Origin: Candidatus Thorarchaeota archaeon
GTDB lineage: Archaea > Asgardarchaeota > Thorarchaeia > Thorarchaeales > Thorarchaeaceae
DNA: 64,000 nt
Assembly: GCA_004524445.1 (NCBI GenBank)
Contig: SDNP01000012.1
Span: 16,145-80,144 of the forward strand
Direction: 5' to 3'
The position numbers and the translations under genes are program-made. The notes under the pieces are model-generated. The model saw only the letters and a program-made list of their open reading frames with translations. It was not told where the DNA came from and ran no database searches. Positions 1,962 to 10,210 of the stretch are shown piece after piece; within the stretch, counting starts at the first letter, position 1; each line of letters starts with the position of its first letter.

Positions 1962-3149
1962 TTGGCTGAAATTGTCACAAGACCATCAAGACGGATCACC
2001 AACATGATTGCCAAGGAGCTGCGTCTTATTGTGAAGGATAAGGTGGCGCTATTTCTCATTTTTCTCCTACCTGCCGCGCTCATCGGCATGTTATATTGGA
2101 CAACAAATCAGAGTTCTTTTGGAGGGTTTGGAGGTGGTGGTGGCGGTAGAGATGCAGGTGATGCCACTAATACCACAGACACTAGTGGGTTTGAAAGTGA
2201 CTTGGTACTAGGTCTCATTGATAGAGATACTACAACTTCATATCCCGGTCAAGACCTGTCTGAAAATTTCACTGGTTACCTTCGAGAATTCACGAGAGAA
2301 CTGATTATCTACAATGATACTAACAAAGCCTATCGGGACCTGTATGAGGAAAAAATCGCAGGGTATATTGTCATTCCGGACGGTTTTGAAGAGAATTTGA
2401 CTGAGAATAATCCGACCTATGTAGAGGTCCATGTTGATGCAACTGATTTCCTCGCTGAGTCTCGAATACAAGGTGTTGTACAAGGGGCTACCATAGTATT
2501 TCGCGCTTCAAAGATGTGGATTAAGTCGGAGGTCTTTCCATCCGTCAAAATTGAATTCACTCCAGAGGGGAATTACATGAATATTTCATTCGGAGGATTC
2601 ATTGTGATTTTCTCAAGCTATCTTGGAATCGCCATGACATCTGCACAGTCTATCGTTGGCGATGTGCCACTGAGGAGAATGTTGCTTACTCCGACTAATC
2701 GGCTCGAAGTAATAGTTGCTAAAGTGATGGGCTATCTTATTATCGGTTTCTTCCAATCCCTTCTTCTGATTACTCTCTGGATTCTAGCCTTTAATCTCTC
2801 TCTTAATACGGGATTTGGATCGCTTGTCGCGATTATGAGCTTGACCTCCTTGACTGGGTCCACCACTGGATTACTGATTTCTGCAATTGCGGACACGAGA
2901 CTTCAAGCAAATCAGATGTTCTTGTTTGTCTTGTTTGGATCTGTGATTCTATCTGGATTCTTCATTGATGTGGGTTTCCTTGACGAGGTTCTCCCCCTCA
3001 ATCAAGGCTTACGACTGCTTATTGACACAGCTTTCAAGGGACTGAACCTACTTGATGTGTTTGACAAGGTATTGAAGCTGCTTGGGTTCTCGATTGCTGC
3101 GATACTAGTGGCGACTTTTGTATACGCCAAAAAGCCAACTCTAGGTTAG
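1962..3149 (+). CDS. ABC-2 type exporter permease
   Basis: N-terminal KELRLIVKDK..LIFLLP, extracellular domain with GYIVIPDGF, LRRMLLTP..EVIVAK motif, multiple C-terminal TM helices; TTG start. Confidence 0.9.
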   Translation: MAEIVTRPSRRITNMIAKELRLIVKDKVALFLIFLLPAALIGMLYWTTNQSSFGGFGGGGGGRDAGDATNTTDTSGFESDLVLGLIDRDTTTSYPGQDLSENFTGYLREFTRELIIYNDTNKAYRDLYEEKIAGYIVIPDGFEENLTENNPTYVEVHVDATDFLAESRIQGVVQGATIVFRASKMWIKSEVFPSVKIEFTPEGNYMNISFGGFIVIFSSYLGIAMTSAQSIVGDVPLRRMLLTPTNRLEVIVAKVMGYLIIGFFQSLLLITLWILAFNLSLNTGFGSLVAIMSLTSLTGSTTGLLISAIADTRLQANQMFLFVLFGSVILSGFFIDVGFLDEVLPLNQGLRLLIDTAFKGLNLLDVFDKVLKLLGFSIAAILVATFVYAKKPTLG

Positions 3150-3156
3150 TGATGAT

Positions 3157-4842
3157 ATGGTACAAAGAAGTGAAACAAAGCCCCTTTCTGAAGACGAAGA
3201 CATCCCTTTTGTAGAAGAAGCATATTTCACAGGAGCTAGGATTGGCGAGGCCATAGATTGGTGCATTGAACGGAAGGATAGAGAATTACACTGTGAAGTT
3301 GAGGGAAGATTAAATTCAACAAACAAAGATGTAGAATTCAATGGAAGAATTCTCACTGTTAAGAAAGGGCTCATCTCAAGGAAAATTGCGGTCATTATCA
3401 ATGAGGATATGCAATCAAAACGGAGAGATGGGTTGGACGCAGTAGTGACAGTTGGGGGAAACACGAGTTCCCAAGAAGATGTCGCTGCCAGTCAAATCAC
3501 TGTTCAAAACTACCTGAGAAGAGATATGTCCGGAGATCTCTATTATGATGGTCGTGACCTACAACAGGCCGTCAAAGATGCCACGAAGATGCAAAAGAAC
3601 CGGCAGATATCCTGCACTGTTTGGGGCAAGAGAATGTCGGACAAGTTACCCATTACAATCAAGGGCAATCTAGTAGGCTCAGCGGCTTCCCCAGCCCCGA
3701 TCCTTCCCGAAGGTTTCCTTGAGGTGCGTGTAGAACCCGAGGACTCAGTTGGAAGCCCCAAGATATTCACGGTTGTACAGCCACAATTGATTATAGGTCC
3801 CCGTACGGATCCCAATCTTACCGTTATCGCAGATAAGGTGTATATTCAGCCATTTTCATGGATTGAAACACCAGCGTATAGGAATGTGATTGAAACAAGG
3901 AATCTCACTGTGAAGGTAAGAAGCGGTAAGAAGATAATTGAGAATGTGTCCTTCTCTATCAAAGAAGGAGAGATGCTTGCAGTCATCGGAGAATCAGGTG
4001 CAGGAAAATCAACAACCATCAAAGCGTTGATTGGAGACATTCCAAGCACAGGAGTGGCCCGAATCGCGGGCATAGACTCACGGAATGCTCAGAAAGTGCG
4101 CTATTTCTTTGGTTACTGCCCGCAGGACCTCTCGTACATGTATGAAACGTTTACACCTCTCGAAAACATCATTGCTTTCGGGAAGCAGTATGACATAGCA
4201 GAGTGGCAGTTGATCCAAGAAGGAAAGACACTGCTTCGTGACTTTGGCATTCTAGAGAAGGGCAACAGCCCAGTAAAGGAGCTAAGCGGTGGACAACAAC
4301 GTAGGGTTTCAATTGCGATGGCGCTGGTTCATCGTCCGAAAGTACTTCTGATGGACGAACCAACTTCCGGTCTGGATCCGGACAATAGAAATGAGCTTTG
4401 GCAGTTTCTTGATTATATCAACCAAGAATATGGCACCTCAATGGTAGTCATTACTCACTATCCAATAGAAGCAGAATTCTGCGATAAGGTAGCAGTATTC
4501 ATGCGTGGTAAGAGCCTTGTGGCATTTGGCACGCCGGCGAACCTAAAGGCCTCAATGCCAAATAGGGGATTCTCAGTAGGTGTAGTCCTGGAAGAAGTTG
4601 ACCCCCGAGCCCGGCCGACCCTTGAAGAGGTTGAGGGAGTCACTTTCGTGCTTCAGCGGGGAGAATTAGTCAAAGTCTTCACGGAGGAGCCGCTTCAAAT
4701 TATCGCAGAAAGATGTGTAGAAGCCCTCTCTTCAAAAGGAATTGAAGTGAAGATTGTAAAGACAAAGGCAGTGGCCGATATGGTTGATTATTACATCGCC
4801 GTAACAAGAGGCCTAATCACCGGCACCATAGAGAAATCATAA
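3157..4842 (+). CDS. ABC transporter ATP-binding protein with N-terminal tandem TrmB-like subdomains
   Basis: Walker A GESGAGKS, signature LSGGQ, Walker B LLMDEPTSGLD, H-loop ITH; ~240-aa N-terminal extension with two related repeats. Confidence 0.9.
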   Translation: MVQRSETKPLSEDEDIPFVEEAYFTGARIGEAIDWCIERKDRELHCEVEGRLNSTNKDVEFNGRILTVKKGLISRKIAVIINEDMQSKRRDGLDAVVTVGGNTSSQEDVAASQITVQNYLRRDMSGDLYYDGRDLQQAVKDATKMQKNRQISCTVWGKRMSDKLPITIKGNLVGSAASPAPILPEGFLEVRVEPEDSVGSPKIFTVVQPQLIIGPRTDPNLTVIADKVYIQPFSWIETPAYRNVIETRNLTVKVRSGKKIIENVSFSIKEGEMLAVIGESGAGKSTTIKALIGDIPSTGVARIAGIDSRNAQKVRYFFGYCPQDLSYMYETFTPLENIIAFGKQYDIAEWQLIQEGKTLLRDFGILEKGNSPVKELSGGQQRRVSIAMALVHRPKVLLMDEPTSGLDPDNRNELWQFLDYINQEYGTSMVVITHYPIEAEFCDKVAVFMRGKSLVAFGTPANLKASMPNRGFSVGVVLEEVDPRARPTLEEVEGVTFVLQRGELVKVFTEEPLQIIAERCVEALSSKGIEVKIVKTKAVADMVDYYIAVTRGLITGTIEKS

Positions 4843-4863: not shown

Positions 4864-7800
4864 TTGAGCGCACAAAAATGGGTAGCAGTTCTCTTGATGC
4901 TAGTATTTGCGTTGAGTCTGATTGCTCCAATACATTCAGCCCCTATTGAACGAGATTCGCCTCAACCGAAGAACAAAATCGACCAGAGATTATTCAACGC
5001 CACATCGAAAAATGCGCCAGTGGACACGCTGGTGCGATATGATTCAGACATATCTGAATACCAAATAGAGAATGCCATATCATTGATTGACGCATATGCT
5101 GAGATTCCACAAACCTTTCAAGAACTGAATATGATGCGCGTGAAGTTAGCAGGAGAAGCGCTCTCGGATTTAGCTGAACTGGACTACATCCGTAAAATCT
5201 GGTCAAATGAAATACTGAAACTGAACCCTCTGAATTTCACCCAATCGAAATCTACAGAAGACTACGTATCACCAGTCGATCTCATTGGAGCCAGGGATCT
5301 TTGGGACATGGGGTACAATGGATCAGGCTCAGTCATTGCCATACTCGATACTGGTGTTGACTTTACACATCCCGACCTTGATGATTTTGATAATTATTCA
5401 GGCAATGCACTCGGGTCCAAAGTTACTGCGTTTGCCTCCTTTGTTGAAGCAGACTCTCTTCCCTTTGATCTCATCGGTCACGGTACATATGCGGCCTCTA
5501 TCGTAGCCGGTACAGGAAACAAATCTAATCGCGTATATTCTGGAATCGCACCTGGCGCAACTCTTCTTTCGGGCAAGGTTACATTGGGTGGTCTATTCGC
5601 CTTGCCGAGTTGGATTGTTTCTGGCATTGAATGGGCAGCTAGTAGAGGAGCCGATGTGATCCTCATGCCCTTCAATACTTTTGGGGCTCCTGGCGATGCT
5701 GTTTCAGAGGCAGTCAAAATTGCAGTTCAGCGTGGAATATTCGTTGTAGCTGCCGCAGGAGACGATGGTCCAGATTACCTCACCGTGATGTCACCCGGTG
5801 GCATAGCAGAGTGCTTCACTGTTGGAGCCTATGATTCTAAACTCGATATGGTTCCTGATTTTTCAGGGAGAGGACCATCCCTAGGTCTTATCACCAAACC
5901 CGACCTTGTTGCTCCAGGCGTTGGGATTGTTGGGGCAAAGCCGGGAGCAGCTCTTGCCGAGTCAGGATTCACCGGATTTGACCTCCAAGATTTGAGTGGA
6001 TTCTCCGCATTGCTTGGCGGCCAATTGGGGGAGAGTGTAGACGATTACTACGTACGAGGAGATACAACAGCAGCAAGTGCAGCCATCGTAGCAGGGGCTG
6101 CCTCGTTATTAATGGAGGCATTCGATAGAGCAACTCCAATAGTAATTGCAAATACTCTACGTGATACAGCAACGCCCCTAGATTATGGTGCTAATGATGC
6201 AGGCGCAGGCCTACTCAATCTTCCAGCAGCCTTTGATGAATTGAGTAGAAAACAAAGGCCAATTTCGACACATAACAGAACAACGGGAATACCTCTTCTA
6301 GCGTTTGGCCTCCTGACATCTTCAGGGTTGAATGCAGAAACAACACTCTTGATGAGTAGCTTTGGAACAAGCATAGTAGCTCTAGACGAGAGAGATAACC
6401 AAGAAGGCTCGATTCATTTGTTGATGGGGATGTTTTCTATAAAATGGAATGACCTTGAGCCAATGAGTCTGATGAATTTCAATGTAAAGAGAGAATTGCA
6501 CCAAGTTGCCCTTGCCTCGCAGCAGAGTAATTACAACAGATGGGTAGGCGTTCTCTCATACGATGAGCAGGTGTATTTGACACTACTAGTAGAGTCGTAT
6601 AATCTCACTCTGTTCGAGGAAACCTCAACTACAGCTTTCAAAATCACCCCGTACATCTTGAATCTTGGTATGAACCCTATTTACAACGTGAGTCTCTATC
6701 TTGATTACTCGCTTGATCTGTTCCTAGATGGCCGTGATGATTATGGAAGGTATGCGCTGGGGAATCAACAGCTATTTGCCTATGGAATTTCGGAGGATAA
6801 TCGCAATTTCTACTTCGGCATGAACTCCAGCATGCCGCTCTCAGCTTTTGAAGTTGGTAACTCTTCAGAAGTGTCTGACCATGTGTCATCAGACAATCTC
6901 ACGGGAAACACACAATTCTATGGAGACGTCGGCCTTGGCATGAAATGGAACTTTGGCACATTAGACCCAAACGAATTAAGTAATGTGACAATTTCCATCG
7001 GATTCGGCGCAAATCGAACCACACTTGATGCATCAATCAGGAGAATGTGGGAACTTGAGCCACCTGCCACTTTCTCACAACGCGGAGACCTCCTTGTCGT
7101 TGAAGCAGATATACCCCGAACGGCTCAGACCAATCAGAATTATCAGTCACGTGCGGTTATTATGAATATTGGAGTAGAGAGTAGTCAGGCAGTGGCAATT
7201 CTAGCTATTGCGAATGGCTCACAGCAAGAGGGGACGGCCTTCACACGATATTTCTCATTTGATGAAATTGAACCATTTAATGCTCGAGTCATAACGACCG
7301 AATGGAGCCCAGTAGAAGAAGGAATTCACACAGCTGCGTGGGCGGTGGCCACGGGATTCGAATTTGCATTGCAGCTAGTCGCTAGTCCTACCGAAACGCT
7401 TTCAACAAGTGGAGTGAGTCTCTTGGATGACTTTCTTCTGAGAGACCTCTTTGTGATATCGCCAATTCGGTCAACGTCGATTTTTCCAAAAGAAGTGCCA
7501 TTTGGACCATTTGATTTGCGTTTTCCTATAGACTTTGGACTCTATTATTTCACTCTATCAACCACCGTGAGTCTAGGGAACTTGACCGTAGAAAAGTATG
7601 GCAATGCTGCTGATTGGGGAAATATCACACTTCCATCCTCTGAGGATGTAGACGGATTTTACAACTTCTCCTTATTCACACTAGTACCGCCAATCACAGT
7701 TGACGGATATCACAGATGTGACTACGTGTTGAATTCCGAATTTGGCTGGTCGATGAATCTTACTCTAGAGAGCAATTTGGAATATCCTCGTGCAATGATG

Positions 7801-9228
7801 CTACTTGATACGTCTCACGGAGGTGGGTTTGGTGCGTTTGGAAATTTTGGAGGAGGGATATCTGTAGATATTGGAGGTGATAGCGGAGGTCTGCCCAGCT
7901 TCCCACTAGCACAGGATACAGGTCAACAGGATGGCGAGGAGGGACTGGACTTTCAGTTTGGTGTAGGAGATATTGATTCGATAGGTTCTTTGACAGATAT
8001 GCTGGAGTCTTTTAGACTCACTACGTTCTCGGGCTTATCCAGCATGAAGAAGCAGATGGCGGATGCCGGTCTAAACCTCATCGAAACGCCGGGAATAGAA
8101 CTGGAAAGCGCGCTTCTTTCTCAATTCTCTTCTATCTTTATGTTCCAGCCATCGGAGGGCTTCAACAGTACAGATGTGAGTACGCTTAGAACTTTTTCCG
8201 CGAGCTATGGTAAGCTGATATTGTTTGGAGATTCCGATGACAGAGCGAATCTTACGGGAATAAACCAACTGCTACAACCGTACGGTTACCGCATGCAGGG
8301 TAAACACGAATCAGAAAATACAACCGGGATTTATCAGAATTCCATTCTTGGAAAAGGAATGACCTGTATGTGGCTTGGCGGTGGAACCTTCATTGAAAAC
8401 AATCAATCACGCGCCCAAGTAGGACTAAATGGAAGACCTGTTGTGCTCTTGGATCATACACGCCCGGAACTGGCATTATTTGGATCCTCACGGATATTCA
8501 TGAACAAACACCTCGTGAAATGTAATAATAGTATTCTATTGGATAACCTCATAGAATATCTGTTGAGAGATACGCTGACAACCGAAACGAGCCTCTCAGA
8601 AGACACGAACCGATTCCCCGTCGGAAAGAGTGTCTATGTAAATCTGAAGGTTTGGGATTATTATGGTGATCCTGTTGACGACCTCACGGTGGCAATTGCG
8701 TTTGAACTGCCAAACGGCAACTTCTCCTATTTCATTGCCGGGTTTGTCGAGGATGGGCTATACTCATCGCAGTTTCTGCCATCCTATTGGAGTTCAAATG
8801 GAACTATTAACGGAATATTCATAGTTTTGAGAGAAGAATACGCTGGTACTTACGCCAGTGTGACTTTTGAGCTATATACCACCCCACCTACTAATGGCAC
8901 AAGAAATGGCGAGCCTCTCTTCACCTTAGTCCAAGTTGCATTTGTCACATCCATTGGCATTTTTGGAGTTGTCTTGGTCGGTCTAGCTTGGAACAAATAC
9001 CGAAGAGGGGTCCGCCTTAGAATACCGGAGATAGATACGGAATTGGGTCAGGATATTGACAACACGTTGAATATGTTGCTCGCTGTCTTCACGCAAATGG
9101 AAGATGTGATTCAACGGGACGACTTGGATCGGATTCAGAAGATTGAGGCATTGCGGAGTTTGATGGTGAGCATGGAGAAGGCTCAAGAGGAGTATGAAGA
9201 TGTTAGCGACAGAGTAGGAGGTGTATAG
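4864..9228 (+). CDS. Membrane-anchored S8 (subtilisin-like) protein with GIFT-like domain; probably catalytically inactive
   Basis: Signal peptide, propeptide, ILDTG (D162), GHGT (H206), KPDLVAPG; Ser motif reads GDTTAASAAIVAG; LLDTSHG...LFGSSRIF..LLDNLIEYL region; C-terminal TM helix plus helical tail. Confidence 0.85.
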   Translation: MSAQKWVAVLLMLVFALSLIAPIHSAPIERDSPQPKNKIDQRLFNATSKNAPVDTLVRYDSDISEYQIENAISLIDAYAEIPQTFQELNMMRVKLAGEALSDLAELDYIRKIWSNEILKLNPLNFTQSKSTEDYVSPVDLIGARDLWDMGYNGSGSVIAILDTGVDFTHPDLDDFDNYSGNALGSKVTAFASFVEADSLPFDLIGHGTYAASIVAGTGNKSNRVYSGIAPGATLLSGKVTLGGLFALPSWIVSGIEWAASRGADVILMPFNTFGAPGDAVSEAVKIAVQRGIFVVAAAGDDGPDYLTVMSPGGIAECFTVGAYDSKLDMVPDFSGRGPSLGLITKPDLVAPGVGIVGAKPGAALAESGFTGFDLQDLSGFSALLGGQLGESVDDYYVRGDTTAASAAIVAGAASLLMEAFDRATPIVIANTLRDTATPLDYGANDAGAGLLNLPAAFDELSRKQRPISTHNRTTGIPLLAFGLLTSSGLNAETTLLMSSFGTSIVALDERDNQEGSIHLLMGMFSIKWNDLEPMSLMNFNVKRELHQVALASQQSNYNRWVGVLSYDEQVYLTLLVESYNLTLFEETSTTAFKITPYILNLGMNPIYNVSLYLDYSLDLFLDGRDDYGRYALGNQQLFAYGISEDNRNFYFGMNSSMPLSAFEVGNSSEVSDHVSSDNLTGNTQFYGDVGLGMKWNFGTLDPNELSNVTISIGFGANRTTLDASIRRMWELEPPATFSQRGDLLVVEADIPRTAQTNQNYQSRAVIMNIGVESSQAVAILAIANGSQQEGTAFTRYFSFDEIEPFNARVITTEWSPVEEGIHTAAWAVATGFEFALQLVASPTETLSTSGVSLLDDFLLRDLFVISPIRSTSIFPKEVPFGPFDLRFPIDFGLYYFTLSTTVSLGNLTVEKYGNAADWGNITLPSSEDVDGFYNFSLFTLVPPITVDGYHRCDYVLNSEFGWSMNLTLESNLEYPRAMMLLDTSHGGGFGAFGNFGGGISVDIGGDSGGLPSFPLAQDTGQQDGEEGLDFQFGVGDIDSIGSLTDMLESFRLTTFSGLSSMKKQMADAGLNLIETPGIELESALLSQFSSIFMFQPSEGFNSTDVSTLRTFSASYGKLILFGDSDDRANLTGINQLLQPYGYRMQGKHESENTTGIYQNSILGKGMTCMWLGGGTFIENNQSRAQVGLNGRPVVLLDHTRPELALFGSSRIFMNKHLVKCNNSILLDNLIEYLLRDTLTTETSLSEDTNRFPVGKSVYVNLKVWDYYGDPVDDLTVAIAFELPNGNFSYFIAGFVEDGLYSSQFLPSYWSSNGTINGIFIVLREEYAGTYASVTFELYTTPPTNGTRNGEPLFTLVQVAFVTSIGIFGVVLVGLAWNKYRRGVRLRIPEIDTELGQDIDNTLNMLLAVFTQMEDVIQRDDLDRIQKIEALRSLMVSMEKAQEEYEDVSDRVGGV

Positions 9229-10210
9229 ATTGGTTGAGAAGAGGGTAAAAGAAATAGTCGTTGAGGACCTCAAAGTTGCTTTCGGTGACTTTTACGCACT
9301 GAAGGGGGTTTCTTTCTTCGCCAACAAAGGCGAATTCCTAGGCATTATCGGGGCCTCGGGAGCCGGAAAGACGACGGTCCTGAGAGTGCTAACGGGACAA
9401 CTCAGTCCCACCGATGGAAGGGCATTCGTTGGAGGCATGGATGTGACGAAGAAGAAGGACCTCATCAGTCTACTTGTGGGATATGTTCCCCAACTTGAGC
9501 ACATCAGCCTGTATTACGACTTCTCAGCTCTTCAAAATGCCCAATTCTTTGGAAGGCTCTTTGGAATGAGACCCAAGGAGATAGAGGAGCGAGCAAGACA
9601 AGTACTCACGATTCTTGGATTTGATGAGGAACTGATGACCAAGGATGTCGACAAATTGTCTGGTGGAGAACGAAAGAGGGTTTCCATTAGTTTGGGGATG
9701 ATTCACGACCCTCCAGTTTTGTTGTTGGACGAACCGACTACCGGTCTGGATGCGCACCTTAGGCATGAAACACTAAACTACTTGAAGGAATTAAATTTCG
9801 AGCTCGGTACCACTCAGGTGATTATATCCCATGATCTTGAAATCGTAGATTACTGTACTCGCGTTGTCCTATTAGAGAATGGATATGTGAGCCAGTTTGG
9901 TACTCCCGAGGATCTCATCTCCACTCTCCCTGGACAGGGTGAGAGCCTGAAGGTTGTCCTCCAAAGCATGTCCCGACCGGTCTTAGATAAACTCAGCAAA
10001 ATCGAAGGAGTAGAATACATGGCCCGGTCCGGCAGAAATGCTCTCAAGCTGTTTATTGACGAGCCCGCGGAACATATGTTGCCTGTTGTGCAGGAGCTCA
10101 ACGAGTTAGAATTACCATATGAGGAGATCAGCATCGTGGAGGCAGATTTCTTCGATTATTTCCAAGTAAAGCCCTGGAAAGAAAAGGGCAAAGGAGTGGT
10201 TGTACCATGA
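9221..10210 (+). CDS. ABC transporter ATP-binding protein
   Basis: GASGAGKT, LSGGE, LLLDEPTTGLD, ISHD; overlaps both neighbours. Confidence 0.95.
   Translation: MYRLVEKRVKEIVVEDLKVAFGDFYALKGVSFFANKGEFLGIIGASGAGKTTVLRVLTGQLSPTDGRAFVGGMDVTKKKDLISLLVGYVPQLEHISLYYDFSALQNAQFFGRLFGMRPKEIEERARQVLTILGFDEELMTKDVDKLSGGERKRVSISLGMIHDPPVLLLDEPTTGLDAHLRHETLNYLKELNFELGTTQVIISHDLEIVDYCTRVVLLENGYVSQFGTPEDLISTLPGQGESLKVVLQSMSRPVLDKLSKIEGVEYMARSGRNALKLFIDEPAEHMLPVVQELNELELPYEEISIVEADFFDYFQVKPWKEKGKGVVVP

Follow-up and report, generated by a model that had tools for sequence, protein, structure and literature searches.

We analysed a 64,000-nucleotide stretch of DNA from a Candidatus Thorarchaeota archaeon (contig SDNP01000012.1, part of an assembly of 2.79 Mb in 64 contigs; the whole stretch is called the window below) and found that the first ~235 residues of a DrrA/ABC-2-type ATP-binding cassette (ABC) ATPase encoded there are two tandem copies of effector-binding subdomain 2 of the regulator TrmB. 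The gene and its parts, numbered by position in the window and by amino acid (aa) of the encoded protein, are as follows.

3157..4842, + strand: fusion ATPase gene, 561 aa; ABC ATPase starting with two TrmB-type barrels in tandem (Pfam ABC_tran and Regulator_TrmB).
3205..3522, + strand: barrel 1 (D1), aa 17-122; predicted strand, helix and five-strand barrel; TrmB-like copy.
3454..3480, + strand: GG-x5-ED loop of D1 (G100 G101 N T S S Q E107 D108), equivalent to TrmB G319-D327.
3523..3861, + strand: barrel 2 (D2), aa 123-235; duplicate of D1 with the GG/ED motif lost, the loop reading LIIGPRTDPNLTV.
3883..4566, + strand: ABC nucleotide-binding domain, with Walker A, signature, Walker B and H-loop all intact.
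4567..4839, + strand: DrrA-type C-terminal domain, assigned by alignment to TIGR01188 drrA.

A previous sequence-only reading of this DNA had proposed, for positions 3220-3850 (aa 22-231 of the 3157-4842 open reading frame, ORF), an ABC ATPase with two TrmB-type sugar-binding subdomains, the first of which (residues ~22-118) was thought to resemble the C-terminal subdomain of TrmB. The residues it quoted were reproduced by translation of 3157-4842 on the plus strand, and the TrmB sequence it used for comparison was almost exactly that of 3qph_A. The presence of two TrmB-type subdomains and the resemblance to TrmB were borne out by Pfam, hhalign and fold matching. The Pfam model PF11495 (Regulator_TrmB) matched D1 at aa 39-117, against profile positions 162-231 of 233, with an E-value of 8.5e-9 and 35.4 bits (cut-off 22.2), and the same model independently matched 18 of 28 D1 sequences from different Asgard genomes. 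As a control we used P0160, a bona fide TrmB regulator that carries a helix-turn-helix (HTH) domain (PF01978, E 4e-21) together with PF11495. The hhalign program aligned the D1 profile with the C-terminal end of this protein (aa 278-353; 94.9%, E 4.6e-8) and did so for the pooled D1+D2 profile as well (96.7%, E 3.9e-10); in a search of 1.84 billion proteins the pooled profile also retrieved P0160, with an E-value of 7.6e-4.

The structural comparison led to the same fold. The AlphaFold2 model of D1 alone reached a predicted local distance difference test score (pLDDT) of 90.3, and in an unbiased VIA-align scan of 48,161 PDB chains TrmB came first (3qph_A, Z 15.8, root-mean-square deviation (rmsd) 1.4 Å over 91 residues, chain residues 248-341; 2f5t_X, Z 14.9). 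The best non-TrmB fold was the N-domain of Pelota at Z 8.2, followed by Sm/LSm, WYL and RimP domains at Z 5-6.5. Foldseek matched the D1 model to TrmB with an E-value of 5.8e-6 and a template modelling (TM) score of 0.72, and gave no other match below 1e-3. Compared with the TrmB sugar-binding domain by structure and profile, the N-terminal region therefore has TrmB as its top fold and a related predicted structure, and the predicted D1 unit agrees with the published description of the second TrmB subdomain as one strand, one helix and one barrel (PMC4158304). Two sequence searches did not lead to TrmB: phmmer with aa 1-245 found no match in the PDB, and the D1 profile did not reach TrmB there. 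A search of the ESM Atlas returned no usable match. VipD and EcoRI, the top PDB matches of the D1 profile, had E-values above 0.2 and were set aside as chance.

The second barrel was examined in the same way. The profiles of the D1 and D2 families aligned with each other over 92 columns (hhalign, 98.7%, E 2.7e-16), and in distant Asgard families the D1/D2 repeat is visible by eye; within the window protein a pairwise BLAST between the two halves of the module was marginal (E 0.001), and a Pfam scan did not detect D2 with PF11495. Against P0160 the D2 profile scored 86.2% (E 4.9e-6) and against TrmB in the PDB it gave E-values of 0.04-0.07. The best PDB match of the D2 profile, a designed TPR protein, was dismissed because its score was summed from many weak repeat matches. 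The two-domain model (pLDDT 84.6, predicted TM score 0.81) matched TrmB at Z 14.4 and 14.3 (3qph_A and 2f5t_X) over the model range 53-224, which is largely D2, with the next fold at 6.7, and Foldseek gave an E-value of 1.3e-5 for the same comparison. Taken together, the TrmB fold matches of D1 and D2 had an rmsd of 1.4-2.6 Å over 91-97 residues. Residues ~128-231 had been described in the sequence-only reading as a second, degenerate copy. The copy is real, but the word degenerate applies to the TrmB motif only, as within Thor-type genomes D2 is better conserved (62-76% identity) than D1 (58-66%).

The fold matches of the module were restricted to TrmB residues 246-342, and Pfam found no match in the fusion protein to PF01978, the N-terminal winged-helix DNA-binding domain of TrmB. 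Since both the HTH domain and subdomain 1 are absent, the fusion protein is not a TrmB family regulator.

Next, we looked at the residues that hold the sugar in TrmB. The non-reducing glucosyl unit of maltose or sucrose is held there by Asn305, Gly320, Met321, Val324, Ile325 and Glu326, all from subdomain 2, and Ser229 of subdomain 1 contacts the second sugar ring (PMC4158304). Of the subdomain 2 contacts, TrmBL1, Tgr and MalR retain only Gly320 and Glu326 (PMC4158304). To transfer this numbering to D1, we chained the residue map via P0160, using a phmmer alignment to 3qph_A and the hhalign alignments; in this map G101 corresponds to Gly320, N102 to Met321, S105 to Val324, Q106 to Ile325, E107 to Glu326 and D108 to Asp327. 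The GG-x5-ED loop, which had been claimed as retained, is indeed present in D1 as G100-G101...E107-D108. D1 keeps Gly320 and Glu326 as G101 and E107, and therefore retains the same pair as the other sugar-sensing TrmB paralogs. The D2 of the window protein has neither equivalent, and D2 in several other Asgard families retains VGG...(E/N)D. We counted the conservation of the D1 loop in 29 Thor-type and 26 other Asgard sequences.

G100: 29/29 Thor-type, 19/26 other Asgard.
G101: 26/29 Thor-type, 10/26 other Asgard.
E107: 22/29 Thor-type (and D in 4 more), 18/26 other Asgard.
D108: 29/29 Thor-type, 17/26 other Asgard.

Over its C-terminal 320 residues the protein is an ordinary ABC ATPase. Pfam ABC_tran covered aa 262-404 (E 3e-28), and the translation contains Walker A (GESGAGKST), the signature (LSGGQQRR), Walker B (LLMDEPTSGLD) and the H-loop. 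The NCBIfam model TIGR01188 (drrA) aligned with aa 259-549 at model positions 7-300 of 302 and scored 179.3 bits against a cut-off of 312.45; because the score is below the cut-off despite alignment over the full model length, we regard the ATPase as DrrA-like and not as a member of the DrrA subfamily. TIGR03522 (GldA) was also among the matches, at 105 bits against a cut-off of 402. The fusion gene encodes a DrrA/ABC-2-type exporter ATPase, and an ABC-2 permease gene lies next to it. A search for homologs of the 561-aa protein returned 142, of 558-566 aa in length, with labels of Thorarchaeota and other Asgard metagenome-assembled genomes, Thorarchaeota predominating. For many of these homologs the automated Pfam annotation already gives PF00005 together with PF11495.

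Of 400 Asgard genomes, 126 contained the N-terminal module; 80 of these are among the 85 genomes of the family to which the window belongs, nine further families have members with the module, and the frames that carry it are nearly always 525-650 aa long. When the ATPase domain alone was used as the query, every close ortholog (E <= about 1e-79) lay in a frame of 544-668 aa unless cut by a contig end. This search added genomes of family f22 which the N-terminal query had missed, and the same double barrel could be recognised at their N-termini. We also sought, as a natural control, a close ATPase-domain ortholog lacking the extension, and found none. In this one orthologous group of Asgard ABC ATPases the double barrel is both conserved and obligatory. 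It is under purifying selection, with an identity of 54-68% across the family and 92% within the genus, compared with 80-88% and 97% for the ATPase domain. Some lineages have modified the architecture: f15 (L037, L038 and L049) has a hydrophobic helical insertion of at least 50 residues between D2 and the ATPase domain, and f23 (L042 and L043) an insertion of ~45 aa between the first two strands of the D1 barrel.

The barrel family is a narrow one, as the pooled-barrel profile had only 39 matches among 1.84 billion representative proteins. The matches of 1,800-2,400 aa that we checked in this list, and one of 788 aa, were spurious and belonged to cadherin-repeat proteins, and the short 'standalone double barrels' in it were mostly fusion fragments cut at contig ends. 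In the window genome the barrel is confined to the fusion ATPase gene. PF11495 had just one other match in this genome, to profile positions 2-134, in L052 (a frame of 269 aa; G000 contig C49:8409-8828, minus strand); as this TrmB-like protein has subdomain 1 and no barrel, the window genome is without a complete TrmB sensor detectable by the Pfam model. Elsewhere in Asgard archaea, single TrmB-type barrels followed by an Arg-rich or Arg/Asp-rich tail occur as small standalone proteins of 145-162 aa (L046:4781-5269, minus strand; L047:4748-5185, plus strand; P0144). One of them ends in RRRRRRR, and in these barrels the DVAA part of the loop is kept and the equivalent of Glu326 is not; such proteins may bind nucleic acid. 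In P0150, a 256-aa protein from the representative library, a membrane helix at the N-terminus (weak DUF4330 match) is followed by a single TrmB-type barrel, whose loop is a textbook SVGGEMAYSEDIAA, and by a further C-terminal region. The barrel was accordingly met doubled on an ABC ATPase, on its own in small proteins with an Arg-rich tail, and following a membrane anchor. This shows the barrel with which TrmB holds its sugar to be a mobile module whose use extends beyond transcription factors.

The fusion ATPase gene lies in an operon, the other members of which are listed below.

1962..3149, + strand: ABC-2 family permease, 395 aa; ABC2_membrane_3 (PF12698) E 2e-28, ABC2_membrane (PF01061) E 1.2e-13.
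4864..9228, + strand: S8 subtilase-like membrane-anchored protein, 1454 aa; Peptidase_S8 E 3e-38, weak GIFT (GldG/IFT52-like) match.
9221..10210, + strand: second ABC ATPase, 329 aa, without an N-terminal extension; ABC_tran E 9e-27, motifs intact.
10207..16962, + strand: TSP3-repeat surface protein, 2251 aa; TSP3_bac E 8e-236 with 35 bacterial repeats, N-terminal beta-propeller (FG-GAP/BBS-like).

The genes are separated by gaps of 7 and 21 nt and then joined by overlaps of 8 and 4 nt. The permease gene ends 7 nt before the ATPase gene, a pairing seen also in other Asgard families; the second ATPase gene starts 8 nt before the end of the S8 gene; and the TSP3 gene begins 4 nt before the second ATPase gene ends, which makes it translationally coupled. 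In the S8 protein the IFT52_GIFT match at aa 1198-1240 scored 23.6 bits, below the cut-off of 27.2. Its Asp (DTG) and His (HGT) motifs are present and, by hand alignment, the nucleophile motif reads GDTTAASAAIVAG, with Ala for the expected Ser; the protein closes with a C-terminal membrane anchor and a cytoplasmic tail of ~75 aa. Across families the cluster order is one or two ABC-2 permeases, the fusion ATPase, the giant S8/GIFT-like membrane protein and the second, plain ATPase. The S8/GIFT-like gene adjoins the fusion ATPase in most sampled loci of f2, f14, f16, f19, f21, f22 and f23, and orthologs of the second ATPase (40-52% identity) are found in the same clusters of other families. In the window the TSP3 gene and a gene for a TPR protein come after the second ATPase. 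Thor-type clusters have one adjacent permease and two different ATPases, and the f21/f22 clusters have two permease paralogs; this make-up hints at a heterodimeric ATPase pair. Beyond the operon, the next genes, on the other strand, encode a GNAT protein, PolX and a DNA ligase. At the opposite side, a 606-aa ORF at 3-1820 on the minus strand, open at the window edge, diverges from the operon; it had no Pfam match at E <= 0.01.

What could such a module do on an exporter ATPase? The allosteric control of export by a sugar that the sequence-only reading had proposed is only partly supported. Our preferred reading, to which we assign a probability of roughly 0.4, is that the double barrel regulates the ATPase by binding a ligand in the cytoplasm; that the ligand is a sugar, as the sequence-only reading had it, is a more doubtful part of this proposal. 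In such a mechanism the double barrel would lie at the cytoplasmic face of the nucleotide-binding domain, and the TrmB-type pocket would be that of D1, made of G101, E107, D108 and the acidic end of the neighbouring strand at 82-84. A small molecule of the cytoplasm, possibly a metabolite containing a hexose, would occupy this pocket and alter the ease with which the ATPase domains close and ATP is hydrolysed. A similar logic is known from MalK, ModC, MetN and OpuA, whose regulatory domains tune ATPase-domain closure or hydrolysis; in fused regulatory domains of this kind the binding of a ligand or a partner can hold the ATPase domains apart. D2, which has lost the pocket in the window lineage yet is more conserved than D1, would probably serve to connect the module structurally with the ATPase domain or with a partner. 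In its widest form, the proposal has a metabolite (sugar) sensor gating an Asgard-wide machine of two ATPases, one or more ABC-2 permeases and a giant dead-subtilase/GIFT protein, joined in the window lineage by a giant Ca-binding surface protein; we consider this full version improbable.

Several observations weigh against a sugar-binding, regulatory role. TrmB effector-binding subdomain 1 (PF11495 positions ~1-150, with the sugar-recognition helix and Ser229) is absent, the Pfam match spanning 162-231 only; without this subdomain and Ser229 the cleft cannot form as it does in TrmB. Two of the six barrel contacts with the sugar are kept in D1, the equivalents of M321, V324 and I325 are not, and the position of Asn305 is ambiguous, being N82 in one hhalign alignment and I81 in the other. 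E107 itself is not invariant: 3 of the 29 close relatives have Q or G at this position, and the sampled f15 sequences have C. The residues invariant across all counted sequences, W35 and R39 in the helix and N118 in the linker, are outside the loop, and in the sampled sequences of family f21 and of genus g60 of family f22 the double barrel, W35, R39 and N118 are kept while the loop is replaced in both barrels, partly by insertions. Finally, we found sugar or glycan genes neither within the operon nor next to it, and no glycosyltransferase gene in the 1-30.7 kb part of the window.

Some of these points could be explained if the module were a protein-docking adaptor, in which no small molecule is involved and the barrels grip the C-terminal tail of the S8/GIFT or TSP3 protein, or the second ATPase, and so couple hydrolysis to the partner. 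In its favour, the genes of the fusion ATPase, the S8/GIFT protein and the second ATPase form a cluster that is maintained in different families, and each of the two giant proteins finishes with a membrane anchor and a cytoplasmic tail. The S8/GIFT tail begins with a basic stretch (KYRRGVRLR), and D1 has a patch of conserved acidic residues at 82-84 and 107-108. The module also changes faster than the ATPase domain, with a loop remodelled from lineage to lineage in the manner of co-evolving interfaces, and none of the invariant residues is in the TrmB pocket. However, the S8/GIFT gene was not within 4-6 kb on either side in the f15 and f17 loci, and docking leaves unexplained why the Gly and Glu of TrmB were retained over such a distance; on balance we judge this alternative possible, though on the unlikely side. 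The retained Gly and Glu, which contact the glucosyl unit in TrmB, would be accounted for if the barrels bound the glycan or glycolipid moiety of an export substrate and loaded it into the ABC-2 channel, thereby modulating the ATPase. There is a precedent in the ABC-2 exporter WzmWzt, the ATPase of which has a carbohydrate-binding domain (CBD) that recognises the O-antigen cap between the CBD and the nucleotide-binding domain, and this binding lowers ATP hydrolysis (PMC9445017). Because the CBD of Wzt both recognises the substrate and modulates ATPase activity (PMC9445017), substrate recognition is a live alternative to allostery, and our permease also matches PF01061 (ABC2_membrane). The permease better fits ABC2_membrane_3, however, the module is an Sm-like barrel in N-terminal position and not the CBD fold of Wzt, no glycosyltransferase or polysaccharide genes are found in or beside the operon, and the f21 and f22 lineages are without the motif, which leaves this explanation with a small chance only.

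It may also be asked whether the Sm-like barrels bind nucleic acid or are purely structural, with no regulatory ligand at all. The nearest folds after TrmB are the Pelota N-domain, Sm/LSm, WYL and RimP (Z 5-8), and the standalone single-barrel relatives in Asgard archaea carry Arg-rich tails typical of RNA binders. Nevertheless, fold matches at Z 5-8 are within the range expected of a common arrangement, the N-terminal module itself has no basic tail, and the protein is a membrane-transporter ATPase sharing its operon with a permease, so that we regard this possibility as very improbable.

A literature search for a fusion of a TrmB barrel with an ABC ATPase found no paper describing it, and a search for GIFT/GldG in Asgard archaea found nothing relevant. 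Binding domains fused to ABC ATPases are already known; the N-terminal tandem of the TrmB type is a new form of such a fusion. It provides a concrete handle on a conserved, unstudied membrane machine of Asgard archaea, namely a putative pocket with two diagnostic residues, G101 and E107. A ligand, if found, would reveal to what the machine responds or what it transports, and the few ligand-gated ABC ATPases would gain a new fold and an N-terminal location of the binding domain. If the widest form of the proposal, a sugar sensor gating this machine, is true, cytoplasmic nutrient status would directly control surface display or export, and the sensing barrel of TrmB would have a post-translational, transcription-independent use in the closest archaeal relatives of eukaryotes.

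Compared with known systems, the module is closest to subdomain 2 of TrmB from Pyrococcus furiosus and Thermococcus litoralis (3QPH, 2F5T; PF11495 ~160-233), with which it shares the strand, the helix and the flattened barrel, the homology being at profile level. It differs from TrmB in that it has no HTH domain and no subdomain 1, forms a tandem pair at the start of an ABC ATPase, does not share four of the six contacts between barrel and sugar, and has invariant residues of its own, W35, R39 and N118. The regulatory domain of MalK, the trans-inhibition domains of ModC and MetN and the tandem CBS domains of OpuA are likewise small domains fused to the nucleotide-binding domain on the cytoplasmic side, but they are C-terminal, have TOBE/OB, ACT-like or CBS folds and belong to importers, whereas here an N-terminal TrmB-type module is joined to a DrrA/ABC-2 exporter-type ATPase which has its own C-terminal domain. 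To our knowledge, no Gld ATPase carries TrmB barrels. The GldA/GldF/GldG systems resemble the Asgard cluster in having an ABC-2 permease, an ATPase and a large extracytoplasmic protein with a GIFT-like match; in our case this match and the one to GldA are both sub-threshold (23.6 vs 27.2 bits and 105 vs 402 bits, respectively), the auxiliary protein is fused to a subtilase-like domain, and there are two different ATPases. WzmWzt, in turn, is an ABC-2 exporter with a domain fused to its ATPase, which in Wzt binds carbohydrate and modulates ATP hydrolysis; in contrast to the system described here, Wzt recognises its own polysaccharide, sits in glycan-synthesis clusters and has its CBD at the C-terminus (PMC9445017).

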